In this document: positions 1,888-18,627 of the stretch, one piece after another
Layout of the letters: every line of letters begins with the position of its first letter
How positions within the stretch are numbered: position 1 is the stretch's first letter
IMG/VR virus record: IMGVR_UViG_2529292911_000011
DNA: 19,414 nt
Source: a virus
Lineage: Duplodnaviria > Heunggongvirae > Uroviricota > Caudoviricetes
Reading direction: 5' to 3' (one strand)
Made by a program: the position numbers and the translations under genes
Notes under the pieces: generated by a model
Databases searched by the model: none
What the model was told of the DNA's origin: nothing
Seen by the model: only the letters and a program-made list of their open reading frames with translations

Positions 1888-3216
1888 CTGAGAGATCCCC
1901 TCATAATTTCCCCAAAGCGTAACCATGTGTGAATAAATTTTGAGCTAGTAGGGTTGCAGCCACGAGTAAGTCTTCCCTTGTTATTGTGTAGCCAGAATGC
2001 CGCAAAACTTCCATGCCTAAGCGAACTGTTGAGAGTACGTTTCGATTTCTGACTGTGTTAGCCTGGAAGTGCTTGTCCCAACCTTGTTTCTGAGCATGAA
2101 CGCCCGCAAGCCAACATGTTAGTTGAAGCATCAGGGCGATTAGCAGCATGATATCAAAACGCTCTGAGCTGCTCGTTCGGCTATGGCGTAGGCCTAGTCC
2201 GTAGGCAGGACTTTTCAAGTCTCGGAAGGTTTCTTCAATCTGCATTCGCTTCGAATAGATATTAACAAGTTGTTTGGGTGTTCGAATTTCAACAGGTAAG
2301 TTAGTTGCTAGAACCCATGGCTCCTTTGCCGACGCTGAGTAGATTTTAGGTGACGGGTGGTGACAATGAGTCCGTGTCGAGCGCTGATTTTTTCGGCCTT
2401 TAGAGCGAGATTTATACAATAGAATTTGGCATGAGATTGGATTGCTTTTAGTCAGCCTCTTATAGCCTAAAGTCTTTGAGTGACTAGATGACATATCATG
2501 TAAGTTGCTGATAGGTTTCCAGTTTTCCGCTCCTAGGTCTGCATATTGTACTTTTCCTCTTACTCGACTTAACCAGTACCAACCCAGCTTCTCAACGGAT
2601 TTATACCATGGCACTTTAAAGCCAGCATCACTGACAATGAGCGGTGTGGTGTTACTCGGTAGAATGCTCGCAAGGTCGGCTAGAAATTGGTCATGAGCTT
2701 TCTTTGAACATTGCTCTGAAAGCGGGAACGCTTTCTCATAAAGAGTAACAGAACGACCGTGTAGTGCGACTGAAGCTCGCAATACCATAAGTCGTTTTTG
2801 CTCACGAATATCAGACCAGTCAACAAGTACAATGGGCATCGTATTGCCCGAACAGATAAAGCTAGCATGCCAACGGTATACAGCGAGTCGCTCTTTGTGG
2901 AGGTGACGATTACCTAACAATCGGTCGATTCGTTTGATGTTATGTTTTGTTCTCGCTTTGGTTGGCAGGTTACGGCCAAGTTCGGTAAGAGTGAGAGTTT
3001 TACAGTCAAGTAATGCGTGGCAAGCCAACGTTAAGCTGTTGAGTCGTTTTAAGTGTAATTCGGGGCAGAATTGGTAAAGAGAGTCGTGTAAAATATCGAG
3101 TTCGCACATCTTGTTGTCTGATTATTGATTTTTCGCGAAACCATTTGATCATATGACAAGATGTGTATCCACCTTAACTTAATGATTTTTACCAAAATCA
3201 TTAGGGGATTCATCAG
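1888..3216 (-). mobile_element. IS10 insertion sequence, complete copy (1329 bp)
   Basis: Inside end 'CTGAGAGATCCCCTCATAATTTCCCC' at 1888; outside end (reverse complement of 'CTGATGAATCCCCTAATGATTTTGGTAAAAATCATTAAG') ending at 3216; full-length transposase between them; flanked by a 9-bp direct repeat. Length is exactly 1329 bp. Single copy, no tet genes, so not a composite Tn10. Confidence 0.95.
1901..3109 (-). CDS. IS10 transposase
   Basis: 402-aa ORF 'MCELDILHDSLYQFCPELHLKRLNSLTLACHALL...' that I recognise as the IS10/Tn10 (IS4-family) transposase; lies entirely inside the IS10 ends. Confidence 0.95.
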   Translation of the reverse strand: MCELDILHDSLYQFCPELHLKRLNSLTLACHALLDCKTLTLTELGRNLPTKARTKHNIKRIDRLLGNRHLHKERLAVYRWHASFICSGNTMPIVLVDWSDIREQKRLMVLRASVALHGRSVTLYEKAFPLSEQCSKKAHDQFLADLASILPSNTTPLIVSDAGFKVPWYKSVEKLGWYWLSRVRGKVQYADLGAENWKPISNLHDMSSSHSKTLGYKRLTKSNPISCQILLYKSRSKGRKNQRSTRTHCHHPSPKIYSASAKEPWVLATNLPVEIRTPKQLVNIYSKRMQIEETFRDLKSPAYGLGLRHSRTSSSERFDIMLLIALMLQLTCWLAGVHAQKQGWDKHFQANTVRNRNVLSTVRLGMEVLRHSGYTITREDLLVAATLLAQNLFTHGYALGKL

Positions 3217-3651: not shown

Positions 3652-3855
3652 ATGAACACCGACACGATTCCTACAAAAGGCTATATCAGACGCTTTCGCC
3701 TGGCTGAATTGCTGGGCGTTAGTGTATCCACCATCGACCGTAAAGTAAGAAACGGTTCACTACCACGTCCGGTAAAGCTGGGAGAAAAAATAACTGCGTT
3801 TGATGCGGTTGAGATTCACAACTGGCTGGCAGAACGCCGCGGGAAGGTGGCCTGA
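3652..3855 (+). CDS. alpA: AlpA-family transcriptional regulator (phage-type HTH)
   Basis: 67 aa; 'RLAELLGVSVSTIDRKVRNGSLPRPVKLGEKITAFDAVEIHNWL' matches the AlpA helix-turn-helix pattern; SD 'AAGAGG' upstream; positioned downstream of the integrase as in P4-type islands. Confidence 0.85.
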   Translation: MNTDTIPTKGYIRRFRLAELLGVSVSTIDRKVRNGSLPRPVKLGEKITAFDAVEIHNWLAERRGKVA

Positions 3856-4286
3856 TGGAAAAGAAAAACCGCCCATTACAGGCGGCTAATTCAGATACTC
3901 GCGTATCTGATGTTACGCCCCTTACAAAATCCCTTCAAGCACCAAAGCGCACACCGAAAAAGCATCGTGCCAGAGTCTATATGCTGCGTACTGGTATAGA
4001 GGGATGGACAGAAAATGACATTCTTCGCTACTGCCGTCTGTCTTCTGGTCGTAACTATGCAACAGAGTTAGAACGCCAGCTTGGAATCACTCTGGAGCGT
4101 ATCGACGAAAAGAATCCTGATGGTATCGGAACACACCTTCGCTACCGTTTCTCCTGCCGCGGTGATGTTCTGAAAGTGATCACTCATATTAACCATCTTG
4201 CGAACATAAATGATCACAACGGACTTTCTCAGCAGGAAATTGCCGACATTCTGAAACTCTACCCGGACGCGTTTAACGCCGCCTAA
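3855..4286 (+). CDS. Hypothetical protein (143 aa), translationally coupled to alpA
   Basis: Start overlaps the alpA stop (TGATG). Basic N-terminus. No family recognised. Confidence 0.6.
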   Translation: MEKKNRPLQAANSDTRVSDVTPLTKSLQAPKRTPKKHRARVYMLRTGIEGWTENDILRYCRLSSGRNYATELERQLGITLERIDEKNPDGIGTHLRYRFSCRGDVLKVITHINHLANINDHNGLSQQEIADILKLYPDAFNAA

Positions 4287-4298
4287 CGGAGACTGAAA

Positions 4299-5132
4299 AT
4301 GAACATCGAAAAAAGCAGATTAATTTCTGAGGCCGCCCCTCATCTGAACGCCTCTCTGGGCACAATTAACGGTAATGAATTTGCCGCAATTGTCCCGGTT
4401 ATTCCTGGTCATATCGGTGGGCGTGAAACCAATATTGTTAGCGCAAAAGCGTTGCACAAAGCGTTGGGCGTGGGAAAAGACTTCTCTACATGGATCACTG
4501 ATCGCATCTCTGAATATGACTTCACCATTGGGCACGATTACTCAGTCCATAAAACAATTTCCCCAAATTTGGGGAAAAGCCCGAATGGCGCGGCTTACAG
4601 CAAGATAAAGCACTCTGGCAGACCCGGCAAAGACTATCTGTTAAGTGTCGGAATGGCGAAAGAACTGGCAATGATCGAACGCAATGATCAGGGTCGCGCT
4701 ATCCGCCGTTATTTCATCCAGTGCGAGGAAGAATTACAGCGTACCGTGCCTGAAATCGCCGCCCGCTATCGTCGCCAGCTAAAAGCCCGTATCAGTGCCG
4801 CAAACAACTTTAAGCCAATGTGCGATGCGCTGAATATGGCCCGTGCCGAGCAGGGGAAAACGACGCAGCAACACCACTACACAAACGAGAGCAATATGAT
4901 TTCTCGTATCGTTCTTGGTGGGCTAACTGCCAAGCAGTGGGCGCGGATAAATGGCTATTCTGGCGAACCTCGCGACCATATGAACGCAGAACAGCTTGAG
5001 CACCTCTCATATCTCGAAAGCACCAATATCACGTTAATTGATATGGGCATGGAATATGAGCAGCGCAAAGGAGAACTCACCCGCCTGTCGCAACGCTGGC
5101 TCGCCAAGCGTCTGGAGGTGGTCAATGTCTAA
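4299..5132 (+). CDS. Phage antirepressor-like protein (Ant/Bro/Rha-type N-terminal region)
   Basis: 277 aa; segment 'DYLLSVGMAKELAMIERNDQGRAIRRYFIQCEEEL' resembles the conserved core of phage antirepressor/Rha/Bro-N proteins as I recall them. Domain call is by pattern only. Confidence 0.65.
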   Translation: MNIEKSRLISEAAPHLNASLGTINGNEFAAIVPVIPGHIGGRETNIVSAKALHKALGVGKDFSTWITDRISEYDFTIGHDYSVHKTISPNLGKSPNGAAYSKIKHSGRPGKDYLLSVGMAKELAMIERNDQGRAIRRYFIQCEEELQRTVPEIAARYRRQLKARISAANNFKPMCDALNMARAEQGKTTQQHHYTNESNMISRIVLGGLTAKQWARINGYSGEPRDHMNAEQLEHLSYLESTNITLIDMGMEYEQRKGELTRLSQRWLAKRLEVVNV

Positions 5133-5307
5133 GCCAACAGGAACACCACAACCACAAAAACGCTACAAAGATGCCCACGGAGCACTCGTTACTGTCGAAA
5201 GCGTGTCTCACAACCGAGTGACGTTTTATCGCGACGGGTATCAATCGCCATGCGTACAACCGCTGGCACGTTTCATGAAGGAGTTCGCGGAGGTTAACAA
5301 ATGCTAA
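5125..5307 (+). CDS. Small protein (60 aa), possibly DUF4222-like
   Basis: ATG at 5125 preceded by SD 'GGAGGTGG' (5113-5120); the 89-aa track ORF from 5038 is probably an over-extension. 'RYKDAHGALVTVESVSHNRVTFYRDGYQSPCVQPLARF' resembles small prophage proteins annotated DUF4222 from memory. Confidence 0.5.
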   Translation: MSKPTGTPQPQKRYKDAHGALVTVESVSHNRVTFYRDGYQSPCVQPLARFMKEFAEVNKC

Positions 5308-6329
5308 CCGTCCAGAAGAAGACATTTTCACTGGCAGGTATGTCGCCAAAATCCAGCAATATGACGGCAAAGTCAGGCATTAATACAGCAGATGCAAGCA
5401 AAGTTTATCATTTGCTGGTGGTCGGAACGGATGCCTTAACCATACCAGAAATCTCGGGCGATGATATTAGCATTGAGAAGGTCAGCGGCTGCGCCAGAAA
5501 ATTTCTGGTCGTAGATGATGTCTTCCGCTCGTGTAGTGACTCCACAAAAACATTCGTCCACGTGCGTGACGTTAACGAAATGAGCGCGATGTACTGTGCA
5601 TCTGGTGCTTCCAATACTGAGTTTTCGGAGTCCATAAAAAAGAGCTTGCCGTTATGCGGCAACACGGTTTATGGTTATAAGGCACCTCATAAAACGGGTG
5701 CCGGGATTGGCCTCCCGCTGACAATCGAGGCGATACATGACGCGCCAGCGTCTTTTTTTGTATCGGCGCACACGCACACCTTATCAATGGTGGGCTGTAT
5801 GGGGCTACCTTCGGGTAGGCTGGTTTCCTTGATTGCCAGTAAGGCCAACTCCGTACAGTCCACCGCCAGCAAGATTGGTCTCTTGGGCGGTGGCTATAAA
5901 CCATCAATCAAGGAGGCTGCCACATGCTGGCTACTACCCCTACCCCAAAACCGCAATTTATCTGGATTATCGCCGCAGTTCGCCGCGATTGCCCGACAAT
6001 TACCGCCAAAATTCATCATATTGCTGCCGAGTCTGAACGCGATGCTCGCCGTTCTCTGGTGCGCGATCACGTCTGCTTTTTTGCTGGTCGTATCCGCATG
6101 GAGGTGGCACATGATTAAAACCTACGATGTGCATATGGATCCCCTCGAACGCACAAGCCAGATCATCACACTGACAGAAGTGATTAACGACATTCTGGTG
6201 AGCAACTCTCCCTCACGAGACGAAAGACTGAAGGCGTTACTCGCGATATTGGATCTCGCCGTTCGTGACGTTCATTTCCTGCTGGAAGGTGGACAAATGC
6301 CATGCAAAACGGGGGCAACCAATGAATAA
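5301..6329 (+). CDS. Stop-free 342-codon frame of uncertain coding status; its 3' 73 codons (from ATG 6111) are the best-supported part
   Basis: ATG at 5301 overlaps the upstream stop (ATGCTAA). The frame is open for 1029 nt. An in-frame ATG at 6111 has a strong SD 'GGAGGTGG' (6101-6108). An out-of-frame ORF with its own strong SD (5924-6118) sits inside it, so the 5301-6110 part may be non-coding or an overlapping gene. Confidence 0.3.
5924..6118 (+). CDS. Small protein (64 aa), possibly Icd-like host cell division inhibitor
   Basis: Consensus SD 'AGGAGG' (5911-5916) 7 nt before ATG 5924; stop overlaps ATG 6111 (ATGATTAA). '[27 protein letters not shown]' resembles prophage proteins annotated Icd-like, from memory only. 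Confidence 0.45.
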   Translation: MLATTPTPKPQFIWIIAAVRRDCPTITAKIHHIAAESERDARRSLVRDHVCFFAGRIRMEVAHD

Positions 6330-6516
6330 CTCAATTAATCCCCCTCGCCTTACGTCCGCACTTCAATTAATCGAGCAAGCAGCGGCTGTCCTGGTTGCTG
6401 TCAGTCTTTCGGCTGAAGAAATGGACGCTGCTGATGTCGTGGATGCGATTAAAGCGTGCTCATCTTTGGTTAACGATGCCCGTGCCGAGCTGGTAATTCT
6501 TGGGGGTGAAAAATGA
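6322..6516 (+). CDS. Hypothetical small protein (64 aa)
   Basis: ATG 6322 with SD 'GGGGG' (6311-6315); start overlaps the upstream stop (ATGAATAA); stop overlaps the next start. Confidence 0.5.
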   Translation: MNNSINPPRLTSALQLIEQAAAVLVAVSLSAEEMDAADVVDAIKACSSLVNDARAELVILGGEK

Positions 6517-6776
6517 ATATCAACTTAATTTATCGTCATCCGTGTGAGCTGGAAATTGAATCATTGCTGGGGCGCGAAGAGCCATATCCAGACACATTCA
6601 CTCCCGCAGATTGCGCGACTGAACGGCTTACCAGAGCGCGCACAGGTCTGGTTCATGTGATGAATGAGATTGTTCCCTCGGTGGGAGGGGAACAGGCGAC
6701 AGTAATCAATAGCTGGCTACAAAAAGTTACCTCCCTGATAGATATCGGTTTAATCGATGTGGAGAGTGCGAAATGA
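6513..6776 (+). CDS. Hypothetical small protein (87 aa)
   Basis: ATGA start/stop overlap on both sides; part of the coupled operon leading to the primase. Confidence 0.55.
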   Translation: MNINLIYRHPCELEIESLLGREEPYPDTFTPADCATERLTRARTGLVHVMNEIVPSVGGEQATVINSWLQKVTSLIDIGLIDVESAK

Positions 6777-6994
6777 CCAACATCCAGCTCATTGAAGCGC
6801 AATGTCGCATCGAACAGGTTCAGACTGTTTTAGGGTTCTGGCTTGAAGGGGCCAGCCCCAGCAACAGAGACAAGTTAATGATTGGCGCGGTTATGTCACT
6901 GCTCAATGGCGTACCAGAAGCTATTCAGGAAGCGGACGAATTGTTGGGCAAATATGAGTTACAGAATCATTCAGGCGAGGCGAAACATGAATAA
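6773..6994 (+). CDS. Hypothetical small protein (73 aa)
   Basis: ATGA overlap with the upstream stop; its own stop overlaps ATG 6987. Confidence 0.55.
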   Translation: MTNIQLIEAQCRIEQVQTVLGFWLEGASPSNRDKLMIGAVMSLLNGVPEAIQEADELLGKYELQNHSGEAKHE

Positions 6995-7589
6995 TTTCTT
7001 AACTTTCCATGCAGAAGCAACGCCTGACGGCGTAAACATCATGTACCGCAGCAACGATGGCATGACAGAACGCGTTGAGACCGTCTCATATATTGATGCC
7101 GTAAATCGTCTGGATGCCGGGGATTATGACGATAAACCAGATGAAGGCATGTTTATACATCTCGCTATTGCCAGTGGCGGCAACCAGGGATATTTCGATT
7201 ACACATCACAGCATCACGTGATTATGTGGCGCTGGCTGATAGCAACAGCATTCATCAATGAAATGAGAAAGGAAAACGGCACCGTCAGCATTATTGATGA
7301 CAGTGGCAATCATTCCGTGGTTTCTGTTTATTCCAATGGCATCGTCGCCATGCCGCTGTATCCAGTAGCAGAGCGCCTCGCTATGGCAAACAACATTGAG
7401 GGCGCAATGATCGAGAAATATGGTGTTGATGTCGGAACAAAGAATGCCATCATTTTTTACAGCAACATGTTCGATGTCGAACAGGGAACACTCACTTCGT
7501 TTGGGCGAGAAGTGCTTGCCGATCTTCACAACAGCTTTATTGCCGAACTAAACGAAAACGGCATCCCAGAAGCACCAGTGACGCACTAA
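6987..7589 (+). CDS. Hypothetical protein (200 aa) immediately upstream of the primase
   Basis: ATG 6987 with SD 'AGGCGAGG' (6974-6981), overlapping the upstream stop (ATGAATAA). The track ORF from 6882 is probably an N-terminal over-extension. No family recognised. Confidence 0.6.
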   Translation: MNNFLTFHAEATPDGVNIMYRSNDGMTERVETVSYIDAVNRLDAGDYDDKPDEGMFIHLAIASGGNQGYFDYTSQHHVIMWRWLIATAFINEMRKENGTVSIIDDSGNHSVVSVYSNGIVAMPLYPVAERLAMANNIEGAMIEKYGVDVGTKNAIIFYSNMFDVEQGTLTSFGREVLADLHNSFIAELNENGIPEAPVTH

Positions 7590-7601
7590 ACGGGGGCCAG
7601 A

Positions 7602-10358
7602 ATGCGAAACATTGATCTTATCCGTCAGGTTATCAGTGCGTCTGAAAACAACTGGCCTCATGTGCTGGGCTGCCTGAACATAAATGTCCCTGACTCTCCG
7701 CGCCGTCATGCTCCCTGCCCTGCATGTGGGGGCAAAGATCGATTCCGGTTCGATGACAACGGGCGCGGTAGCTTCATCTGTAATCAGTGCGGCGCTGGTG
7801 ATGGGCTGGATTTAATTAAACGCGTAAATAACTGCGACACAACAGAGGCGGCGCTTCTTGCCGCTGATGTTCTGGGTATTGATTACCGGACAACGGAAAC
7901 ACCAGAAGCCACCAGCCAGAAACGGGAACAACTGGAAACCGAGCGCCAGCGACGCGAACAGGAGCGCCTGAAAAGGGCAGAGAAGGACGAACAACAAAGA
8001 CGGGATACGTTTTCCCGTCAGTTTGATGACATGCGCAGAAAGGCTGTAAACGGCAAATCTGATTATCTGGTTGCGAAAGGGGTAGGTGATTTTACATTCC
8101 CCGTGTTGCCCGATGGATCTCTGTTGCTGGCGCTGGTGGATAAATCCGGCGCAGTCACAGCAGCACAGACTATTACCTCACATGGTGAAAAAAGACTCCT
8201 GACAGGTTCAGCAAAGCGAGGGGCATATCACGCCATAAACGCACCAGAAACAACACAGAGCATCTTAATCGCAGAAGGGCTGGCAACGGCATTATCTGCC
8301 CATTTAATTCGTCCAGAGGCGCTGACAGTGGCGGCGATTGATGCCGGGAACCTGTTATATGTCGCCCAGGTACTGCGGGATAAATTTCCTTCAGCACAAA
8401 TCATCATTGCTGCGGATAACGACCACAGCGAAGGAAGACAAAACACGGGGAGAATAGCAGCAGAAAAAGCAGCTTTATCTGTTTCTGGATGGGTGGCATT
8501 ACCCCCGACAGATCACAAAGCAGACTGGAATGATTACCACCAAAAACACGGCATTAAATGCGCCACAGAAGCGTTCAATAAGTCAATGTACCAACCACAG
8601 GGTAATGGCGTGAAACAGGAGCCACAGACCATTGAGGGAAGCGATTTTAAGGTTATGGATACCGACCCACTGAAACCAAGAATAGAAAGCCGCGAGGATG
8701 GTATTTATTGGGTATCTCCGAGAGCTGACAGCCAGAGTGGAGAAATCATCAATAACGAAAGCTGGTTATGTTCTCCGTTAAGCGTTATCGGTACTGGCAG
8801 AGACGATAAAGACCAGTATCTCATTCTTCGCTGGCTGTCGTTTGGTTCTGAAACGCCGACAACCGCTGCCATTCCACTGGCTGATATTGGTGAACGTGAA
8901 GGATGGCGCACACTTAAAGCTGGTGGGGTAAATGTCACGACCAAAAGCAGCCTCAGAGCAATACTGGCAGACTGGCTACAACGCAGTGGCTCTCGTGAAT
9001 TGTGGCGTGTTGCTCATGCCACTGGCTGGCAATGCGGAGCGTACATCATGCCTGATGGGGAAATCATCGGAACACCTGAAAATCCTGTGCTGTTCAGCGG
9101 GAGAAGCTCAGCCGCAGCCGGATATACCGTCTCAGGGAGCGCGAAAAGCTGGCGTGATAACGTGGCGCGTCTGGCCTTTGGTAACTATTCAATGATGACC
9201 GGGATCGGCGCAGCACTGGCAGCGCCATTGATTGGGCTGGTGGGCGCTGACGGGTTCGGCATTCATTTCTATGAGCAGTCGAGCGCGGGTAAGACCACCA
9301 CGGCAAACGTGGCGAGCAGCTTATACGGCAACCCTGATTTACTGCGGCTGACGTGGTACGGAACCGCGCTGGGGCTGGCAAATGAGGCCGCCGCCCACAA
9401 TGACGGATTAATGCCGCTTGATGAAGTTGGTCAGGGCGCTGATCCTGTCAGCGTTTCACAGTCTGCCTATGCGTTATTTAACGGTGTAGGGAAACTGCAA
9501 GGCGCTAAAGATGGTGGAAACCGTGATCTAAAACGCTGGCGTACAGTGGCAATCAGCACCGGAGAAATGGATTTAGAAACATTTATCGCTACTTCTGGGC
9601 GAAAAACCAAAGCCGGGCAACTGGTGCGACTGCTGAATATTCCGTTGAGTAAAGCAGTACGCTTTCACGATTACCAGAACGGAAAACAGCACGCAGACGC
9701 ACTGAAAGACGCTTACCAGCATCACCACGGCGCAGCCGGGCGTGAGTGGATTAAATGGCTGGCAGACCACCAGCAACAGGCTATTAAAACTGTTCGTGAT
9801 TGCGAAAGCAGATGGAGAAGCCTGATCCCATCCGATTATGGTGAGCAGGTTCACCGTGTAGCCGCGCGATTTGCCATTCTGGAGGCAGCATTGCTGTTAG
9901 GCGAAGTTGTAACAGGCTGGGATGCTCAGACATGCCGTGATGCGATACAGCACAGCTATAACGCATGGTTGCGCGAGTTCGGCACAGGTAACAAAGAACA
10001 TCAGCAGATTATTGAACAAACGGAGGCATTTCTTAATGCCTATGGGCTTAGCCGTTTTGCACCATTTCCATACAGCCCGGCAGATTTGCCCATCAAAGAT
10101 TTAGCCGGATACCGTCAGCGTGGAGAACATGACGAAAGCCCAATGATTTTCTACACATTCCCGGCCACATTTGAAAAGGAGATCGCATGTGGTTTCAACG
10201 CAAAACAGTTTGCTGAAGTGTTGAAAAAAGCCGGGATGCTAACCCCACCAAACAGCGGTCGTGGATACCAAAGAAAATCACCACGTATTCAGGGACGACA
10301 AATAAACGTTTATGTACTCAATTACCAGCCAGGAGATTATAACTCATCTGAAGAATGA
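7602..10358 (+). CDS. DNA primase-helicase (N-terminal zinc ribbon + TOPRIM + C-terminal P-loop ATPase), P4 alpha / PICI Pri-Rep type
   Basis: 918 aa. Cys cluster 'CPACGG...CNQCG' near the N-terminus; TOPRIM-like 'LIAEGLATALS' and 'IIAADNDHSEG'; Walker A-like 'YEQSSAGKTT'. Iteron cluster lies immediately downstream. Confidence 0.9.
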   Translation: MRNIDLIRQVISASENNWPHVLGCLNINVPDSPRRHAPCPACGGKDRFRFDDNGRGSFICNQCGAGDGLDLIKRVNNCDTTEAALLAADVLGIDYRTTETPEATSQKREQLETERQRREQERLKRAEKDEQQRRDTFSRQFDDMRRKAVNGKSDYLVAKGVGDFTFPVLPDGSLLLALVDKSGAVTAAQTITSHGEKRLLTGSAKRGAYHAINAPETTQSILIAEGLATALSAHLIRPEALTVAAIDAGNLLYVAQVLRDKFPSAQIIIAADNDHSEGRQNTGRIAAEKAALSVSGWVALPPTDHKADWNDYHQKHGIKCATEAFNKSMYQPQGNGVKQEPQTIEGSDFKVMDTDPLKPRIESREDGIYWVSPRADSQSGEIINNESWLCSPLSVIGTGRDDKDQYLILRWLSFGSETPTTAAIPLADIGEREGWRTLKAGGVNVTTKSSLRAILADWLQRSGSRELWRVAHATGWQCGAYIMPDGEIIGTPENPVLFSGRSSAAAGYTVSGSAKSWRDNVARLAFGNYSMMTGIGAALAAPLIGLVGADGFGIHFYEQSSAGKTTTANVASSLYGNPDLLRLTWYGTALGLANEAAAHNDGLMPLDEVGQGADPVSVSQSAYALFNGVGKLQGAKDGGNRDLKRWRTVAISTGEMDLETFIATSGRKTKAGQLVRLLNIPLSKAVRFHDYQNGKQHADALKDAYQHHHGAAGREWIKWLADHQQQAIKTVRDCESRWRSLIPSDYGEQVHRVAARFAILEAALLLGEVVTGWDAQTCRDAIQHSYNAWLREFGTGNKEHQQIIEQTEAFLNAYGLSRFAPFPYSPADLPIKDLAGYRQRGEHDESPMIFYTFPATFEKEIACGFNAKQFAEVLKKAGMLTPPNSGRGYQRKSPRIQGRQINVYVLNYQPGDYNSSEE

Positions 10359-10370
10359 GCTTCTTCATGT

Positions 10371-10484
10371 GCGTAGAAAAGGTGTTGGTTCAGTTGGTTC
10401 AGTTGGTTCAATTTGCAAAGAGTATTGTTTTGTAAGGATTTTATTCTTTTTATTGAACCAACACTGAACCAACAACACGGTATT
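10371..10484 (+). repeat. Iteron cluster A (putative origin of replication)
   Basis: Three tandem 9-bp 'GTTGGTTCA' repeats (10374-10400), a ~40-bp AT-rich spacer, then three inverted 'TGAACCAAC' copies (10444-10452, 10455-10463, 10476-10484). Sits directly 3' of the primase-helicase. Confidence 0.8.
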
Positions 10485-10813
10485 TTGAACCAACACAATG
10501 TGACTGAATTGATGCGCTCAACACCTGGCTGGCATCAGAGAGTGTTTTACGAGACTTTCGTAAAATCCTGTGTACAAGGGCGTGACGTTTTTGAAAGTGA
10601 GCACTACGAAATTTTCGTAGTTCAGAAAACAGCCCCTGAGAAGTTGTTATGCCTGTTCAGCAAACCATCCGCATAGCTGATCGCGAATCAAATTACCAAT
10701 GGAGCCAGAAGCAAGGGCAGAACTGAAAAGCGCCTGCCGTGAAGAGTAATGCGACACCATAAATATAGTTTTTAGAGTCCATAAAAAACCTGTCAAAACC
10801 TGACACACAGAAC

Positions 10814-10848
10814 GATGCCACCAGCTACTGAGCGGTGGCATTTTTTTG
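10814..10848 (+). terminator. Rho-independent terminator
   Basis: Stem 'TGCCACC' (10816-10822) / 'GGTGGCA' (10834-10840) with an 11-nt loop, followed by TTTTTTT (10841-10847). Confidence 0.7.
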
Positions 10849-10909
10849 TGCTGTTTGTTTCATATTTTGCAATTACGATGATGAATATTGCGATTTGTGA
10901 AACTATAAT

Positions 10910-10929
10910 AACTGTTGTTTTATACAGTT
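10910..10929 (+). promoter_or_regulatory. LexA-box-like site (putative SOS operator) in the cargo operon promoter region
   Basis: 'AACTGTTGTTTTATACAGTT' = CTGT-N8-ACAG with AT-rich centre; 15/20 identical to the box at 18749-18768, including both flanks. Lies between a 'TATAAT' hexamer (10904-10909) and the SD 'AAGGGGG' of the ORF at 10943. Confidence 0.45.
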
Positions 10930-10942
10930 CTAAGGGGGCGTT

Positions 10943-11116
10943 ATGGCTATTTCAGTAAAGCCGGTATTGATAAGTGAGAAGCAAATGGAAGCGATAAAGA
11001 AAATTCAGGAGGAGCAGCGTAAAAAATCAGAGGTAGGAGTTGCGCCAACGATCCACGAAATTGCTCGGGGATTAATGGATAAGGCGCTGGCTTACACTTT
11101 AACTGGACGTGGGTAA
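10943..11116 (+). CDS. Small protein (57 aa), possible ribbon-helix-helix DNA-binding protein
   Basis: Not in the ORF track (under 60 aa). ATG 10943 with SD 'AAGGGGG' (10932-10938). 'KPVLISEKQMEAIKKIQEE...GVAPTIHEIARGLMDKAL' has a strand-helix-loop-helix layout compatible with an Arc/CopG-like fold. Ends 4 nt before the next ATG. Confidence 0.45.
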   Translation: MAISVKPVLISEKQMEAIKKIQEEQRKKSEVGVAPTIHEIARGLMDKALAYTLTGRG

Positions 11117-11120
11117 ATCA

Positions 11121-12587
11121 ATGGCTACGTGGCAACAGGGTATTAATTCTGGTGGTTTTCTGGCTGGCATCGGTACGCAAAATGAGAATGCGCCAAAGGC
11201 AAGCGACATTAACGCAACGCTTGGTCTGATTCGCGAAAACAATGAACTGGCTCGATCAGGTGCAAATAACGTTGCTCTGACAGGTCTTCGTGGTCTGGCT
11301 GGAGTTGCTGATATTTATAAGCAGCAGCAACAGCAGGAGCGTAAAGCGGCATTCCAGAAAGGTTATGCAGATGCTTATGCGTCCGGTGACAGGGAGCAGA
11401 TGCGTAATCTTATTACAGCATTCCCAGAAGAGTTTGAGGAAGTCCGTAAAGGGATGAGTTATGTCGATGATGCTCAAAGGGATGATTATGGCAATCTGGC
11501 GCTCAAAGCACAGGTAGCCTCATCGCTTGGTCCGGGCGCATTTGGCAGGTTCATGATGGATAATGAGCAGGAGATGCGTCGTTTAGGTATCCCTCCAGAA
11601 ACTATTGCTGAAATGCAGGTTAATGACCCGCAGGGCTTCCAGCATTTCGCAGGTAATCTGGCGCTGTTTTCTCTCGGTCATGAGAAGTATTTCGATATCA
11701 AAGATCAAATGGAAAGTCGGGATATTGAGCGTGGCAAGTTGGCAGAGACAATCCGCAGCAATCAGGCTGGTGAAGCACTTCAGGCGAGAGGGCAGGATAT
11801 TAGCCGAGCAAATGCGTTAACGTCAGCATATGCACCAACAGCAGCAATGCAGAATTACAATCAGTACGCGCAAATGTTAAAGGCTGATCCAGAGGGGGCG
11901 GCGGCATTTGCGGCAGCGGCTGGAATTAATACAAACACCAAAAAATTAATGAGTGTTAGAGAAAACGATGATGGCACTGTCACAAAATACTACACAGACG
12001 GAAGTGAAGAGCAGGGAAAACTAAACCAGCCAATATCTGGAGATGGGTTTCGTCCAATAGCTTTGCCAACAGCCCAAAAGATCATGGAAAAGTCGCCAGA
12101 AGGGGCTAAAAAAGCTGCTGGATTTGCATACAGGGTTAGGGATGCTCTTGATTCAATAGATACACTGAAAGACCAGCTTAGCCCACAGCGAGTGGCGATC
12201 ATTAATAATGCTTTGGGTAATGGGACGCTGGCTAACTTAACGCTCAGCCCAGCAGAGCAGCAATACGTTGTTAATGCTAATGACGCAATAATGGCAATAC
12301 TCCGTCAGGAAACAGGGGCAGCTATCGCACCTGCTGAAATGTCAAAATATTATCAAATGTATTTCCCTCAGCCTGGCGACTCCACAAAAACCATTGATAC
12401 CAAGCGCCGGAAGATGGAAAACCAGTTCAATTCGCTGAAAGCTGCTTCTGGTCGAACTTATGATGCTTTGCGGGTTATTTCAGCAGTTGACAGAGGAACT
12501 GCTTCTTCGTCGCAGACATTGCCGCAATCTGAGCAGGTATCACAGCCAGCAGCCAGCAGTAACTTTTCTTCACTATGGGGTGATTAA
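11121..12587 (+). CDS. Hypothetical protein (488 aa), Gln/Ala-rich, function unknown
   Basis: ATG 11121 (the track's GTG at 11109 is an alternative start). Poly-Q stretch 'KQQQQQERK', Ala-rich tracts; no catalytic motif recognised. Stop overlaps the start of the next gene (TAATG). Confidence 0.8.
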   Translation: MATWQQGINSGGFLAGIGTQNENAPKASDINATLGLIRENNELARSGANNVALTGLRGLAGVADIYKQQQQQERKAAFQKGYADAYASGDREQMRNLITAFPEEFEEVRKGMSYVDDAQRDDYGNLALKAQVASSLGPGAFGRFMMDNEQEMRRLGIPPETIAEMQVNDPQGFQHFAGNLALFSLGHEKYFDIKDQMESRDIERGKLAETIRSNQAGEALQARGQDISRANALTSAYAPTAAMQNYNQYAQMLKADPEGAAAFAAAAGINTNTKKLMSVRENDDGTVTKYYTDGSEEQGKLNQPISGDGFRPIALPTAQKIMEKSPEGAKKAAGFAYRVRDALDSIDTLKDQLSPQRVAIINNALGNGTLANLTLSPAEQQYVVNANDAIMAILRQETGAAIAPAEMSKYYQMYFPQPGDSTKTIDTKRRKMENQFNSLKAASGRTYDALRVISAVDRGTASSSQTLPQSEQVSQPAASSNFSSLWGD

Positions 12588-14692
12588 TGGCTAAAGCATG
12601 GAAAGATGTTATCGCCTCTCCACAGTATCAGGCGTTAGCACCAGAACAAAAAGCGCAGGCTCAGGAGCAATACTTCAATGAAGTCGTTGCCCCGCAAGCC
12701 GGAGAAAGTGTAGAGCAGGCTAAGCAGGCTTTTTATGCTGCCTATCCACTACCATCAACGAATGAAATAGACCGATCCCAATCAGCAACTCAAAATATTC
12801 AACATACATCATCTGATAATTCTATTGCGTCAGGGTATGCAAAGTTAGCTACTCAGCAAAGAGAGGGGCTTGAGCGTTCAGCAGAACAGGGAGCCAGTCT
12901 TGGGGCTGCGATGCGCGATGCTATAACAGGCGAAAGCCGAATGACTCCAGAGATGGAGAGACTGCAAAATGTCGACCTTGCCCCAGAGTTAACCTCACTC
13001 AGCATGGATGCTCTAAAAGCTCGATGGTCTCAACTTTTCGGCTCTGACGCATCTCAGGAAAAGATTCTTCAGAGCATGGGAGCGAAATTAAGGCAGGATG
13101 AGAAGGGTAACACTATCGTTTCCCTGCCATCCGGTGATTATGCTCTGAACAAGCCGGGTTTATCGCCGCAAGACGTGGCATCGTTTCTGGCTAATGCGCT
13201 GGCGTTTACACCAGCGGGCAGGGCCGGAACGGTGCTGGGGGCCATAGGGAAATCAGCAGCTACAGATTTAGCACTACAGGGAGCCACCAGCCTCGCTGGT
13301 GGAGAAGATATTGATCCGTTACAAACGGTAATTTCTGCTGGCATTGGTGGTATTGGTAAGGGGCTGGAAAATACAGCGAGTGCGGTTTCGAGGGCTGTTC
13401 GTGGTGATATGTCGCCTGAAGCAAAGGCTGCTGTCGACTTTGCATCGGAAAGAAATCTGCCGTTAATGACCAGTGACATGCTGAAAGATAAAACCTTTAT
13501 GCAGAGTCAGGCTCAGACATTAGGCGAAAGAGTTCCTTTTTTTGGAACCGGTAAGAATCGGCTGAATCAACAACAAGCACGAGAAAATTTAGTCAGAACA
13601 TTTAGCGATGGTCTGGGTGGCATTTCTGATAAACAGCTTTATGAATCTGCGACTAAAGGGCAACAAAAATTCATTGAGGCAGCAGGAAAGCGATATAACC
13701 GCATAATTGACGCTATGGGGGATACCCCTGTCGATCTCTCAAACACGGTAAAAGCTATCGACAATCAGATTGCCGTGTTAAGCCGCCCGGGCAAATCTCA
13801 GGATAGAGCCGCGGTAAAAGTCTTGCAGCAATTTAAAGACGATATCACCAGCGGACCAAATGACCTGCGTCTGGCGAGGGAAAACAGAACCGATCTTCGA
13901 AAGCGATTTATGGCGTCATCTGACACTGTTGATAAAGATACGCTCCAGAAAGCCAGCGATATTATCTACAAGGCATATACGGCGGATATGAAAAAAGCCG
14001 TAGCCAAAAATCTTGGAGCAGACGAAGCTATTAATATGGCAAGGGTTGATCGCTCATGGTCTAAATTCAATGACATGATGGGAAGAACGCGCGTTCAAAA
14101 GGCAATAGCCAGCGGCAAGGCCACGCCTGAGGATGTAACAAAACTTGTTTTTAGCCAAAGCCCATCAGAACGTTCTCAGCTTTACAGGCTTCTGGATGAC
14201 AATGGTAGGCAAAACGCACGAGCAGCCATAGTTCAGAATGCTGTAGATAAGGCGACTGATCCGTCTGGAAATATCAGTGTTGAGAAGTTTATTAATGCGT
14301 TACACCGGAACAGGAAGCAATCAGCAACTTTCTTTAAAGGCATACATGGAAAGGAACTGGACGGCGTTATTAAATACCTCAACGATACAAGACACGCGGC
14401 AAAAGCGAACGTTCAAAACTTAAATGGTCAGCAGCTTTATGGATTGTTAGTTGGTGGTGGCATCATAAACGCAGCAGTATTAGCGGGGATGCTAAAAACG
14501 GCTGCGTTTGTTGTTCCTGCTGCTGGTGCCGTAGGCGGAGCAGCGAAGGCATACGAAAGCCCTGTTATACGAAATGCCTTGTTACGTCTGGCAAATACGC
14601 CAAAAGGTAGCACAGCATATGACAGAGCGATCAGTACGGTCACACAATCACTGACCACAGCAGCACAAGCATCGCAAAAGGAAGCTCAATAA
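12587..14692 (+). CDS. Hypothetical protein (701 aa), helical low-complexity with a C-terminal Gly/Ala-rich hydrophobic segment, function unknown
   Basis: Translationally coupled to the upstream gene. Residues ~617-656 'LYGLLVGGGIINAAVLAGMLKTAAFVVPAAGAVGGAAKAY' (nt ~14435-14554) look like a glycine-zipper/transmembrane segment. No nucleotide-binding or nuclease motif recognised. Confidence 0.85.
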   Translation: MAKAWKDVIASPQYQALAPEQKAQAQEQYFNEVVAPQAGESVEQAKQAFYAAYPLPSTNEIDRSQSATQNIQHTSSDNSIASGYAKLATQQREGLERSAEQGASLGAAMRDAITGESRMTPEMERLQNVDLAPELTSLSMDALKARWSQLFGSDASQEKILQSMGAKLRQDEKGNTIVSLPSGDYALNKPGLSPQDVASFLANALAFTPAGRAGTVLGAIGKSAATDLALQGATSLAGGEDIDPLQTVISAGIGGIGKGLENTASAVSRAVRGDMSPEAKAAVDFASERNLPLMTSDMLKDKTFMQSQAQTLGERVPFFGTGKNRLNQQQARENLVRTFSDGLGGISDKQLYESATKGQQKFIEAAGKRYNRIIDAMGDTPVDLSNTVKAIDNQIAVLSRPGKSQDRAAVKVLQQFKDDITSGPNDLRLARENRTDLRKRFMASSDTVDKDTLQKASDIIYKAYTADMKKAVAKNLGADEAINMARVDRSWSKFNDMMGRTRVQKAIASGKATPEDVTKLVFSQSPSERSQLYRLLDDNGRQNARAAIVQNAVDKATDPSGNISVEKFINALHRNRKQSATFFKGIHGKELDGVIKYLNDTRHAAKANVQNLNGQQLYGLLVGGGIINAAVLAGMLKTAAFVVPAAGAVGGAAKAYESPVIRNALLRLANTPKGSTAYDRAISTVTQSLTTAAQASQKEAQ

Positions 14693-14753: not shown

Positions 14754-15152
14754 TTAACACTTGCCTTTAACATTGCCGACAAATGAGCCTGTAAATGAGC
14801 CTATATCAGATCGACTAATTGTTCGTGTATGGATCACTTTTCCGTCATTTGAGATTGCCCATGTGACAAGCGTCAGTTGACCATCTCGATAGCTTCTTCC
14901 CATCATGGCATTCGGAGATAGCGGGTAATAATCAATACCTCCACCTATACCATCTTTTGCCAAGATAAGATCCGCCTTCTCTTTACTTATTACCAAATGA
15001 AAGGTATCTGGTATAGATGATAACTTATAGTTATACCCATCTGAACTTGAGGCTTCTTGTCCTTTCAGATCACCAATAATCCAGCATTCAGCGTTCGCTC
15101 CAAAAGAAGCAAATAATAAACCGGAGACAACCAATCGCTTCAATTGATTCAC
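14754..15152 (-). CDS. Small secreted protein with Sec signal peptide (133-aa precursor)
   Basis: GTG start at 15152 with strong SD 'AAGGGAGGG' 5 nt upstream on the minus strand; N-terminus 'MNQLKRLVVSGLLFASFGANA|ECW' is a classic signal peptide with an AxA site. The track's upstream extension to 15278 would bury the signal peptide and is rejected. AT-rich. Mature protein has Cys near both ends. Confidence 0.65.
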   Translation of the reverse strand: MNQLKRLVVSGLLFASFGANAECWIIGDLKGQEASSSDGYNYKLSSIPDTFHLVISKEKADLILAKDGIGGGIDYYPLSPNAMMGRSYRDGQLTLVTWAISNDGKVIHTRTISRSDIGSFTGSFVGNVKGKC

Positions 15153-15291
15153 ACCAACCCTCCCTTTAGCGTTGTTTAGAATGGCAATCATCATATATCC
15201 AAGACATGGCATTTGGTACATAGCTTGGGTCGGGATTTCAAATCCGATCCCCGTTGATGGGGCCGTTACAGTGCGCACATATCCGCTTTAT

Positions 15292-15552
15292 GTGAAACAG
15301 GAAGATTTTTCTGATATCACTGCCACAGCAAAACACCAATTTCGAGACAAGTACGCGTGCGAGGGGTATCAGTTGCAAAAAATTTTGCAACTACGTCCGA
15401 CCAGTATGCACACGATGGCGGGGGGATACCATAAAACTGTTCTCTACATGAGACAGAGTGGTGGTGATGTGTTGATTATCGGCGTATATGCGCACAGGAC
15501 GCGCTATGACGATGTTTTATGCGGGTACACCAATCACATGTATCTGGTGTGA
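15292..15552 (+). CDS. Hypothetical small protein (~86 aa), possibly RelE/ParE-like fold
   Basis: C-terminal 'GGYHKTVLYMRQSGGDVLIIGVYAHRTRYDDV' loosely fits the RelE/ParE core pattern. Start is uncertain (GTG 15292 or 15271; no clear SD). No antitoxin partner seen. Confidence 0.3.
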   Translation: MKQEDFSDITATAKHQFRDKYACEGYQLQKILQLRPTSMHTMAGGYHKTVLYMRQSGGDVLIIGVYAHRTRYDDVLCGYTNHMYLV

Positions 15553-16185
15553 TAAATCGCGTTACATGACCTCTCATGTTGTGCTGGTGGTTATCACGAC
15601 GTTCTGAATCTGGCCTTTGCCTGGTATTTTGCGACAAGTACGCGCGCGTAGCATCGAAATAATCGGATGGCGTATGCTGCTGGTAATATGAAGACCGATA
15701 GCATTAACCGAAAGGAGAAAGACTTCTCGATAACGGCAAGGGGGCTGAATTGCGAGGCGAGATTAAGCAACTGTCTTGAACGTAAAAATCATGGAGCAAC
15801 ATGATGGTACGATTCATTCCATTCTTCGTTCTTTCTGAGCATTGCGTTCAGGCTTAGTCAAAATTAGTGTTGCGAGCGGACCTATTAGTAATTGTTGGTG
15901 CGATGCGCCTGTTATGGATTGTTATGGTTGTGGCAGGCCTGATTAATATCCAGTATGACCACCAGCTATGAGAGGCCACCTCAGTGGTTCGCAGTTGCAG
16001 GTTTGCACTCAGGTTCGCAGGGTTTTGGCTACTTTCACGTGCGAACCTGCAGAATTGCAAAGGACAACTAAGTCCTCTGGCCAACTCCCGGTTTATGAGC
16101 GACACAGTCCGCCTGGCGCATCGTTTTCGTCGAGTGCGCCCATCAGCTTGTCCATGGACTATCCACCACTCGATATTAAAGCTAA

Positions 16186-16371
16186 TCATTGGTTGCCAGC
16201 CCGCGAATCAAGTTTGTTCTGGATCCAAGCTTCAACCTCCTCAAGCGACCATCTAGCTGATCTACCAATTTTAACTGGCTGTGGAAACGTGCCCGTCTTA
16301 ACCCATGAGTAGATTGCCGTTTTCTTGAAGCCCGTTCTGAGCATGACTTCGCTTAATTTGATAAGGCGCAT
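16186..16371 (-). CDS. alpA: AlpA-family transcriptional regulator, second copy in inverted orientation
   Basis: 61 aa 'MRLIKLSEVMLRTGFKKTAIYSWVKTGTFPQPVKIGRSARWSLEEVEAWIQ' is a textbook AlpA HTH pattern. Divergent in sequence from the copy at 3652. Confidence 0.8.
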   Translation of the reverse strand: MRLIKLSEVMLRTGFKKTAIYSWVKTGTFPQPVKIGRSARWSLEEVEAWIQNKLDSRAGNQ

Positions 16372-16623
16372 AGAGGCTCCTCTGCTTTAGATTAAGCATA
16401 GTGACAATCTGGCTTTGGGCGGTATCCAAAAGCGAGGTATCCATGTTGGTATCCACCAAAACGCTGTTTACCAAAAAAGTTACCACCGGAACAGGACATT
16501 TTGAGCTGTAACTTAACACATAGCATATGGAGTTCACGCATAGACTTCACGCACAACGGCTCCGGCCAGTGAAGAATCACCCTGGCTGGCAATATAATGC
16601 CGATCACCATCAGAGGGGAATCC

Positions 16624-16815
16624 ATGACACCACGAGAAATCGAGCTGCTGACCATTGCCAAGCTGGAGCATGACGGCCACCAGCTCAGCCCGGCAGAACT
16701 GCGGGAATTAAGGCGCCAGCTGGCAGAGGGCCCTGTAATAGCCAGGCGGTACCGCGAAATGATGACCAGCCACGCATATCGCTGGAGCAAACCAGCGCCG
16801 CTCCGTGCGCGGTGA
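16624..16815 (+). CDS. Hypothetical small protein (63 aa)
   Basis: ATG 16624 preceded by SD 'GAGGGG'; 'MTPREIELLTIAKLEHDGHQLSPAELRELRRQLAEG...'. Two direct 'TTCACGCA' repeats (16533-16540, 16546-16553) lie upstream. The overlapping minus-strand ORF 16392-16790 is W/R/C-rich and looks spurious. Confidence 0.35.
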   Translation: MTPREIELLTIAKLEHDGHQLSPAELRELRRQLAEGPVIARRYREMMTSHAYRWSKPAPLRAR

Positions 16816-16890
16816 GCAGCACCTAACCAGCACTAGACAAGCCCTGTGCTGGTGGATGTCCCTCATAATTAGCGGTTTTTAAACGGCGTG

Positions 16891-17013
16891 TTGGTTCACG
16901 GCCTCTTTTTGTTGGTTCAAAAATGGGGTGTGTTGGTTCACATTTTGCGAATAATCCTTTTAAAAACAATACTCTTTGCAAATTGAACCAACTGAACCAA
17001 CTGAACCAACACC
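16891..17013 (-). repeat. Iteron cluster B (second ori-like / cis replication region), inverted relative to cluster A
   Basis: On the minus strand: three tandem 'GTTGGTTCA' (plus-strand 'TGAACCAAC' at 16984-17010), an AT-rich spacer, then three dispersed copies (16891-16898, 16912-16919, 16933-16940). Positions 16963-17013 are the exact reverse complement of 10371-10421 (51 bp). Confidence 0.8.
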
Positions 17014-17046
17014 TTTTTGCTTATCTATATAGTCTGAGAGGCAGAA

Positions 17047-17334
17047 ATGATAAGGGACAGGAAAGCTGAAGAGCTGGAGTTAAAAGGGCTATGCCGGAGA
17101 GCTGCCACACGATGGGCAGAAGTCATGACGCTGGCAGATGGCGATAAAGAACGTGAACATGCAGCAAACAGACGCTCTGAATGTATCCGTAGGGCGGCAC
17201 GCCCACCAGCAACTACAGACAGATTCGGAGACTTAAGACAGGCAGTTAAGCGAACGCATTCAGCTCTTGGTATGGATGAGGAAGCGAGAGGGTACTTCAG
17301 GCGTTATCGCGATAAAGATTGCCAGCTACGATAA
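17047..17334 (+). CDS. Hypothetical basic protein (95 aa)
   Basis: ATG 17047 with SD 'GAGAGG'; Arg-rich; immediately downstream of iteron cluster B. No family recognised. Confidence 0.55.
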   Translation: MIRDRKAEELELKGLCRRAATRWAEVMTLADGDKEREHAANRRSECIRRAARPPATTDRFGDLRQAVKRTHSALGMDEEARGYFRRYRDKDCQLR

Positions 17335-17503
17335 AGCAAAGGAGGTGTCTTACTACAATGACCAAGCAAAACTGTCGTTGCTTTCGCATAGCATCAGCTA
17401 AAAGATCAAGACACCCAACATCGCATTAATAAGTATAATCAATTTGCTTCTTTCAACATTTGCTATAGAGTTTTTGAACCTTAATGGTTTATGAGCATCT
17501 ATA

Positions 17504-18268
17504 ATGACTACAACGGTATATGATCGTGTTAACGCCTTAGTAGCGACCGACTCTAGGTGGTCTGTTGATCTTAGCCCACATGGCTACGATGGTCATATCC
17601 TGTATATTGACGATACCGGCTTCGGTAAGCTAGCTCCACGAAATGATTTTGTTATGCTTTTAGCCGGTGATGGTCTTTTGATTCAGTTATGGAAGCATTG
17701 GTGGCGAGGAGACCTATCTCAACAAGAACCACCAGTTGTTTTACCTACTGGTCAATCGGTAAATTTACATATTGTGAAAAAATCAACTAATGAAGTGATT
17801 TTTGATAAAGGTCAAAAATTAGTTGTAAAAAATAACGAAACGGAAGAACTGTTCGCTGTCTTTACAGGCTCAGGATGCGGTGCTGCTGCGCAAAACTGGA
17901 TGTATAGCCATTGCGCAAGATCAGCAATTGAAGAATCTAAAAAGCTTGACCCATACACTGGCGGCACTGTACGTTTTTTAGACTTCAGGACTAACGCATC
18001 ATTAGTAGAAGACTCTGTTTCAACCATTAGCGAAGTAAACGAAGCTCTATTGCAGAGGGGGCTGATTATGGATACCAAAAACCCACATTCACCACACGTT
18101 TCTATCAGTGCACAAGAAGTTGCTGAAGTTCGTCAAATGCTGGTTAGTGGTTCAATTACCCCATGTGCACCAGTAGGCCAAAGAACCCAAGATTGGGATG
18201 ACAACTCCAAATTGCGTTTAGCAAATGCTATTCAGCGTATTCGTGAAGAAGAAGCACAAATGCGATAA
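17504..18268 (+). CDS. Hypothetical protein (254 aa), AT-rich, function unknown
   Basis: Long ORF in a relatively AT-rich segment, followed by a strong hairpin terminator. No motif recognised. Confidence 0.75.
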   Translation: MTTTVYDRVNALVATDSRWSVDLSPHGYDGHILYIDDTGFGKLAPRNDFVMLLAGDGLLIQLWKHWWRGDLSQQEPPVVLPTGQSVNLHIVKKSTNEVIFDKGQKLVVKNNETEELFAVFTGSGCGAAAQNWMYSHCARSAIEESKKLDPYTGGTVRFLDFRTNASLVEDSVSTISEVNEALLQRGLIMDTKNPHSPHVSISAQEVAEVRQMLVSGSITPCAPVGQRTQDWDDNSKLRLANAIQRIREEEAQMR

Positions 18269-18286
18269 ATGGAATAAGTAAGCCTA

Positions 18287-18316
18287 AAAAGCTGCCTATC
18301 ATACAGGCAGCTTTTT
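18287..18316. terminator. Rho-independent terminator, potentially bidirectional
   Basis: 'AAAAGCTGCCT-ATCATAC-AGGCAGCTTTTT': 7-bp GC-rich stem flanked by an A-run on the 5' side and a T-run on the 3' side; 19 nt after the stop of the 254-aa ORF. Confidence 0.75.
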
Positions 18317-18627
18317 AGTCCGTTTCCCCATTCTATGTAAATACACTTCCTAAAAATAGCGATTAACTTACCTCTCACAATCAATTTCACGAGCAATACG
18401 CGTGCGCAGTACAACAAGCCTGAACAGGGTTACACACCTCGATCGTGAGCGATGTAGACAATGGCTTTTGACCAAAGCACCAGAAAAAACCGTGTACATA
18501 AGGGTGTACATAATCAAAAAAATCATTAGAAAGAAATCAGCCACAATGCGGCATTGAAGCCAATACTCTACAAACAGATTCAATTGAGTAACTCGTAACA
18601 CTAATTCTTACTTTTCAGCCTTCACAA

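Follow-up and report, generated by a model that had tools for sequence, protein, structure and literature searches.

Does the palindrome at positions 10910-10929 place the operon behind it under the control of LexA, and what would such an operon contribute to a mobile island? The window, i.e., the whole stretch of 19,414 nucleotides that was analysed, is a piece of E. coli chromosome with a PICI-like integrative island between yicC and dinD. A first-pass annotation of this DNA had proposed that the palindrome is a second LexA-box-like site, that it lies over the promoter of a cargo operon, and that it couples this operon to DNA damage, the signal that also induces helper prophages. The reading argued for here, with a probability of roughly 0.7, is that LexA binds the site, represses the operon and contributes to its SOS-dependent control. 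The following LexA-like sites are discussed:

10910-10929, no strand assigned: LexA (SOS) box candidate AACTGTTGTTTTATACAGTT, core CTGT-N8-ACAG at 10912-10927, identified by matrix score and family conservation
18749-18768, no strand assigned: SOS operator of the host gene dinD, AACTGTATATAAATACAGTT, identical to the published dinD box (PMC3009722), outside the island
12116-12135, no strand assigned: weaker LexA-like site TGCTGGATTTGCATACAGGG inside the gp20-like open reading frame, 15.7 bits, heterology index (HI) 10.6

The letters and the coordinates of the 20-mer AACTGTTGTTTTATACAGTT agreed with the window. The similarity to the box at 18749-18768, on which the proposal had been based, was found as described: AACTGT...ACAGTT is common to both sites, and five of the eight central positions differ. 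This reference site is a LexA box, but it had been treated as a member of the element, and this part did not stand. It is the published operator of the host gene dinD, and it lies beyond the right end of the island, the position of which, about 18582, was derived from an excised circular copy; the dinD box was, thus, rejected as a part of the island. The remark that several genuine SOS boxes have T-rich centres applies to uvrB, the documented box of which is AACTGTTTTTTTATCCAGTA (PMC3009722).

Matrix scoring had been suggested as a check. The 18 E. coli boxes that are documented as UV-induced in Table 4 of PMC3009722 served for a position weight matrix and a Lewis-type HI. With the symmetrised matrix the site reached 19.4 bits and an HI of 7.9, which is well within the range of bound E. 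coli sites; a low-HI peak has been published at about 7.3 (PMC12527982). In leave-one-out scoring, the 18 reference sites extended from 26.7 bits (istR2) down to 3.1 bits (polB), and the site at 10910-10929 was level with those of recA (20.0 bits), yebG (19.8 bits), lexA (19.2 bits) and sulA (18.9 bits). It would stand about tenth among the 18 sites, i.e., in the middle of the range. When all 20-mers of the window were ranked, the dinD box was first and the site at 10910-10929 was second. In sequence (a 20-mer related to TACTG(TA)5CAGTA), in score and in its position at a promoter, the site has the properties of a gammaproteobacterial SOS box. LexA is strict with respect to spacing, and strong LexA sites are generally occupied (cf. 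the indirect citation in PMC3688515). The architecture of the 20-mer is the same as that of the canonical E. coli SOS operators (dinD, uvrB, recA, sulA, umuDC), its score is in their range, and its T-rich centre resembles that of uvrB. In contrast to these operators, it is situated on a mobile island, which is found in about 9% of complete E. coli genomes, and it is not included in the K-12 regulon lists. The weaker site TGCTGGATTTGCATACAGGG is of a grade that is expected about 0.04 times per window. It is also present in other E. coli copies of the island, and this conservation is uninformative because the site lies in coding sequence.

A palindrome that arose by chance and has no function was also considered. 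The bare core CTGT-N8-ACAG is expected 0.26 times per window, a frequency at which a chance hit is conceivable, and the two exact occurrences that were found are on their own weak evidence against chance. The full matrix was much more restrictive. The exact score distribution gave a probability of 1.7-2.3e-7 per position for scores of at least 19.4 bits, so that a window of this size should contain 0.003-0.005 such sites by chance and the intergenic region about 1e-4. When this 266-nt region was shuffled 20,000 times, the score was reached in 3 cases. In addition, the element always has the same place behind the -10 hexamer, and other spacers recur in other genera. The matrix statistics, the shuffles, this recurrence and the enrichment in promoter windows described below have effectively refuted a chance origin.

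The following features define the island around the site:

1-1260: tyrosine integrase (int)
1901-3109, minus strand: IS transposase DDE_Tnp_1, 402 aa
3652-3855: AlpA-type regulator
4299-5132: AntA/B
5301-6329: Ash-family protein
7602-10358: Toprim/DUF927 primase
10384-10496: iterons, just downstream of the primase stop
17047-17334: PerC homologue

An integrase, an AlpA-type regulator and a primase/replication module are present in the order that is conventional for PICIs. The layout int - AlpA - primase/replication - ori-like iterons - downstream module is that of the Gram-negative PICIs (EcCICFT073-type; Fillol-Salom et al. 2018/2019). In Gram-negative PICIs an accessory/immune hotspot is located next to pri (He et al. 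2024, PMC11364771), and the variable module of the window has the same position next to the primase. In contrast to these PICIs, no rpp, terS or capsid gene was found in the window, and the module consists of helper-type genome-delivery proteins behind a conserved leader. The search with Pfam and PHROGs for genes of packaging redirection or capsid size (terS, rpp, cpm, sid, own capsid) had no hit in the window, where several small ORFs are unannotated. Three direct iterons, GTTGGTTCA(G/A)TT with 9-bp spacing (10384-10413), face three inverted copies, TTGAACCAAC (10453-10496), and this stretch is a candidate for the replication origin of the island.

As in other PICIs, an excised circular copy exists. 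The 12,152-bp circular 'plasmid' NZ_CP148430.1 is collinear with the window from 3845 to 11536, its gp20 gene is truncated, and it joins the right end of the island (window about 18382-18582) to the integrase end. The E. coli strain from which it stems also has chromosomal copies of the island. The record is evidence that the island is excised and circularised, with an assembly artefact as the other possibility. Similar non-mobilizable 'plasmids' of 17-23 kb, with weaker matches to the leader, were seen in Raoultella and Klebsiella. The IS at 1901-3109 sits just past the integrase-adjacent gene, and at this place the TB354 island, which is collinear elsewhere, is shorter by about 1.25 kb. The right-hand accessory region differs from strain to strain (14754-18300 in the window, 18155-22327 in L001). 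In TB354 it encodes an Abi-family protein, and in the window it contains several unannotated ORFs, the PerC homologue and a protein of 254 aa that weakly matches an HslV-peptidase-like PHROG; PADLOC had no match in the region 14754-18300 of the window.

The region upstream of the operon has the following features:

10806-10850, plus strand: intrinsic terminator, stem GCCACC...GGTGGC at about 10817-10839 and a T-run; reported by the scan as 10824-10839 plus ATTTTTTTGT
10857-10903, no strand assigned: upstream promoter region with the inverted 17-mers GTTTCATATTTTGCAAT (10857-10873) and ATTGCGATTTGTGAAAC (10887-10903)
10904-10909, plus strand: -10 hexamer TATAAT, a perfect match to the consensus that hardly varies within the family
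10932-10938, plus strand: Shine-Dalgarno sequence AAGGGGG of the leader gene, read from the sequence

The box had been said to sit between a -10-like hexamer and the first ribosome binding site. Both neighbours were present: the hexamer is a perfect TATAAT, which abuts the box without a gap, and AAGGGGG as well as the ATG at 10943 are downstream of the box. The predicted transcription start, at about 10916, lies within the box. This is a usual arrangement, i.e., in many SOS and colicin promoters the box overlaps the -10 or the +1, and the colicin boxes are just downstream of the -10. The terminator, about 60 bp upstream of the -10 hexamer, insulates the operon from the primase and the upstream region, and the operon therefore has its own promoter. 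The box lies directly on this promoter, the only one that is plausible for the operon. A simple sigma-70 scan found no canonical -35/-10 pair, with 3 of 6 matches for the -35, and the promoter call thus leans on the -10, which is perfect and conserved. The weak candidate -35, ATGAAT (10881-10886), is flanked by the two 17-mers, and in an anchored alignment of 62 distinct promoters TTTCA/TGCAAT/TGAAA repeats between -50 and -1 were conserved family-wide. Because the -35 is weak and the repeats upstream are conserved, a second regulator of the promoter is likely, and the region 10857-10903 is its probable site. LexA would, therefore, probably be one of two locks and not the only switch.

The weak -35 and the conserved repeats could also mean that LexA binds with little physiological effect and that an activator (AlpA, PerC, a late activator of the helper, or the leader) lets the operon follow helper infection or island induction. 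The island encodes an AlpA and a PerC regulator, and most relatives function without a proper box. However, a perfect TATAAT can give an appreciable basal activity that needs repression, and full boxes appear to have arisen and been kept in two clades independently, which argues for a selected effect. Control by an activator with LexA as a bystander was, thus, regarded as unlikely; dual control by LexA and an activator would leave the claim of DNA-damage control partly true. Very improbable is a third reading, according to which the inverted repeat is an RNA hairpin of the 5'UTR that controls translation or stability. The arms are able to pair in a stem of 5-6 bp, but in five lineages the folding energies were no better than those of shuffles (z +0.5 to -1.3), and the shorter class B element of most relatives is unable to form the stem. 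In addition, the left arm would not be transcribed, because the predicted +1 is inside the box.

The operon behind the LexA site consists of three genes:

10943-11116, plus strand: 57-aa leader gene, from a family with the invariant GVAPTIHEIARGLMDKAL, island-specific
11121-12587, plus strand: P22 gp20-like DNA ejection protein (Inj_translocase PF16928, 6.6e-84; phrog_917, 2.8e-143)
12587-14692, plus strand: P22 gp16-family DNA transfer/ejection protein, 701 aa (phrog_770, 4.5e-161)

For the gp20-like gene, the start at 11121 is the one that RefSeq annotates in the TB354 copy, which is collinear. In RefSeq the pair is named 'phage DNA ejection protein' and 'P22-gp16 family'. The two genes are adjacent, and the homology to gp20 and gp16 extends over most of their length, as is characteristic of P22-type ejection (E) proteins. 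The "cargo operon" of the first-pass annotation is, thus, an operon, but its content is no ordinary cargo: it encodes a leader and, according to Pfam, PHROGs and RefSeq, P22 gp20/gp16-type ejection proteins. A reading of the operon as a defence system was rejected, since PADLOC gave no match. Because the operon encodes DNA ejection proteins, co-timing with helper induction is more sensible. A study on P22 SieA reported that gp16 and gp20 enter the virions independently but function only as a cognate pair, and that changes in gp16/gp20 let the phage escape SieA exclusion (PMC10461980); the window carries a gp16 and gp20 pair of this kind.

The leader protein family has 20 invariant columns in the alignment. 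The leader had no match in Pfam, PHROGs or PADLOC, and a sequence search of the PDB gave no meaningful match. The AlphaFold model (pLDDT 74) has an extended N-terminus and two helices, and Foldseek found no fold match for it in the PDB. The leader is possibly a ribbon-helix-helix protein; as neither the sequence nor the fold was matched, this stays a guess. None of 50,697 phage records encodes the leader, and phage genomes align only from the start codon of gp20 onward. Promoter, box and leader are, therefore, island-specific.

The promoter region was found in 502 of 5,426 complete E. coli genomes (about 9%), with 90-100% identity. Through the leader protein family, encoding contigs, species-representative genomes and IMG/VR yielded 80 further loci, and three E. 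coli records were added. The comparison set is given as 81 related loci, 80 of which were scored for box class, and the loci are not independent of each other. A full box (class A) was defined as a site of at least 15 bits. It was present in 23 of the 81 loci, including the window, in four sequence versions and in two separate clades. The Escherichia version is AACTGTTGTTTTATACAGTT, or the same with a G at position 1, the Serratia version is TACTGTGTCTATATACAGTT (21.0 bits), one further lineage has AACTGTATCGTTATACAGTG (17.1 bits), and the version of Erwinia persicina, Pantoea and Lonsdalea is TACTGTATAAAATAACAGGA (20.6 bits), the right arm of which is fused to the Shine-Dalgarno sequence. The four versions vary at position 1, at positions 7-14 and at positions 19-20, and ACTGT and ACAG are constant. 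Fixed arms and a free spacer match the information profile of the LexA motif, an agreement that is partly circular because class A was defined by the score. All E. coli copies examined, including HeN100 and the 12-kb circular copy, retained the box, and position 1 alone varied between A and G. Sites that reached 15 bits numbered 22 in the 6,715 positions of the 85-nt leader-promoter windows, versus 17 in the other 733 kb of island DNA, i.e., they were about 140-fold denser at the leader promoters.

In all forms the element begins directly after the TATAAT. Class B comprises 38 of the 80 scored loci. Its element, nCTGTAT-N3-TATCAGGrGG, i.e., CTG-N9-CAG, is 1 bp too short for LexA and scored 0-8 bits; it lies about 25-40 nt upstream of the leader ATG (L004-L081) and contains a perfect LexA half-site, TACTGTAT. 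Class C was found at 10 of the 80 scored loci; it has the sequence CTGTATAAATATCATG, with CATG as right arm, and scored up to 14 bits. A few loci are otherwise mutated. The Leclercia copy has the length of the TACTGTATAAAATAACAGGA version, but its arms have decayed, and it scored 6.6 bits. At one locus (L036) an operon with E proteins is situated behind a class B promoter, and LexA control is, therefore, not required for an E-protein operon.

Class B is itself conserved, so that something besides LexA also constrains the sequence. The palindrome might, thus, primarily be the operator of another regulator, i.e., the 57-aa leader or a factor of the island or the helper, and its likeness to a LexA box might be secondary. 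In favour of such a regulator, most relatives have kept at this position a related element, CTGTAT-N3-TATCAG(G), whose length falls 1 bp short of what LexA needs, and the leader, with its 20 invariant columns, its predicted extended N-terminus and its two helices, fits a small DNA-binding fold. However, the full boxes have a free centre of 8 bp between fixed ACTGT and ACAG, which is the profile of LexA, whereas class B conserves the centre, and invariant recognition residues are not expected to tolerate both spacings. Moreover, no similarity of the leader to a DNA-binding family or fold was detected, and binding of LexA in addition would remain compatible with such a regulator. As the primary role of the palindrome, this second operator was considered improbable. 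More speculatively, LexA may bind to the half-site of class B with the help of a cofactor, as in GIL01, where LexA uses a half-site with the help of the small element-encoded gp7 (PMC4551915). It is conceivable that GIL01 is a model for the 1-bp-short class B with its perfect TACTGTAT half.

The distribution of the full boxes was compared with the leader-protein tree and with the type of upstream sequence. In both cases the full boxes formed two clades nested among forms without the box, although a tree of a 57-aa protein is weak. The two clades also differ in the architecture of the 5'UTR. The separation of the clades and their different 5'UTR layouts suggest two independent acquisitions of the full box. 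The simplest reading, given the weak tree, would be two gains and one loss. The transition between class B and the full box can be an indel as small as 1 bp, and it appears to have occurred more than once. The LexA-competent form and the form that is 1 bp shorter, at the same promoter position, would be a natural example of regulatory rewiring via spacing.

In the collected loci the leader cassette was always downstream of a primase, and the genes behind the leader varied. Related islands carry the full 14-7-20-16 set, and the modules include P22 gp14/gp7/gp20/gp16, a tape-measure/transglycosylase protein together with a baseplate hub (phrog_196), and others. A further module encodes an internal virion protein of 840-900 aa with an SLT domain and its phrog_1145 partner. 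All annotated modules (L002-L081; typically 5150-9500 in locus coordinates) are virion parts for genome delivery or envelope penetration. In HeN100 (L083, 3125-4001) the same cassette of promoter, box and leader, with a box of 19.5 bits, follows a P4-family primase and not a DUF927 primase, and the leader is followed by a 223-aa hypothetical protein, without ejection proteins. From this layout it follows that the cassette moves between backbones.

If the LexA site acts as proposed, the following course of events would result. The operator at 10910-10929 would start at the base after the -10 hexamer and cover the predicted +1 of a sigma-70 promoter, which would drive the 57-aa leader, the gp20-like and the gp16-like gene. 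In the undamaged cell a LexA dimer on the operator would block RNA polymerase. After DNA damage RecA would become active, LexA would cleave itself, and the operon would be derepressed. The same signal inactivates the repressors of P22-like prophages, and the ejection-protein pair of the island would accumulate in time for being built into the procapsids of the helper. It is, thus, probable that the SOS signal that awakens helper prophages also turns on the ejection proteins of the island. These proteins might equip the island-carrying particles, bypass exclusion, or poison helper virions.

A wider picture of the family can be drawn, which we put forward tentatively and regard as possible but rather doubtful as a whole. 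In it, an Enterobacterales family of PICI-like islands would use a portable cassette of promoter and 57-aa leader to drive interchangeable genome-delivery modules that are matched to the helper (P22 gp14/7/20/16; tape-measure/transglycosylase and baseplate hub; internal virion SLT). These satellites would supply a DNA-injection machinery of their own to helper virions, as equipment or as sabotage, e.g., to get past a superinfection exclusion of the helper such as SieA, which targets gp16/gp20. In at least two lineages a spacing change of as little as 1 bp would independently have made the non-LexA form a full SOS box, which synchronises the cassette with helper induction.

The LexA site is one more of a well-known kind, and the controlled operon family is the more unusual part. 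What makes the operon of more interest than the box is that a satellite-like island has phage ejection proteins of its own and that its relatives swap modules; this raises the two possibilities that satellites adapt the device with which hijacked virions deliver DNA, or that they poison helper particles. In the open-access literature that was covered by a few searches, no description of satellites with ejection or tape-measure proteins was found, and none of the four box sequences was found in the open-access literature searched.

The nearest known counterpart is operon I of the SaPIs of Staphylococcus aureus, which is described as LexA-controlled (Ubeda et al. 2007, as cited in PMC5052747). 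Also in that case a satellite operon that acts on the assembly of helper virions is under the host SOS repressor and fires with the induction of the helper prophage. In contrast to SaPI operon I, the host of the window is Gram-negative and the motif is the gammaproteobacterial CTGT-N8-ACAG, the proteins are of the gp20/gp16 ejection type instead of terS/cpmAB/pti, and LexA control, which is predicted here from the sequence, is confined to some lineages of the family. The island, with a key promoter that would be wired to LexA, also resembles GIL01 and other LexA switches of temperate phages; in contrast to the LexA-controlled antirepressors, the genes that would be regulated here are structural. 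If the reading as a LexA operator is correct, the window would contain a Gram-negative equivalent of SaPI operon I with its LexA control, and a mobile operon would join the SOS regulon of E. coli, an addition that varies between strains because the cassette is present in about 9% of the complete genomes.

Additional LexA-like sites were observed in two of the relatives, L043 and L081 (3038-3079). Between the SSB gene and the leader cassette these loci have tandem boxes, TACTGTGTTTTTATACAGTC (22.5 bits) and TACTGTTCATAATCACAGCT (15.5 bits), 22 bp apart, which precede the genes for a 349-aa protein and a 169-aa membrane protein. This accessory operon is likely to be SOS-controlled, and the presence of strong tandem boxes in two relatives indicates that SOS wiring recurs in these islands.
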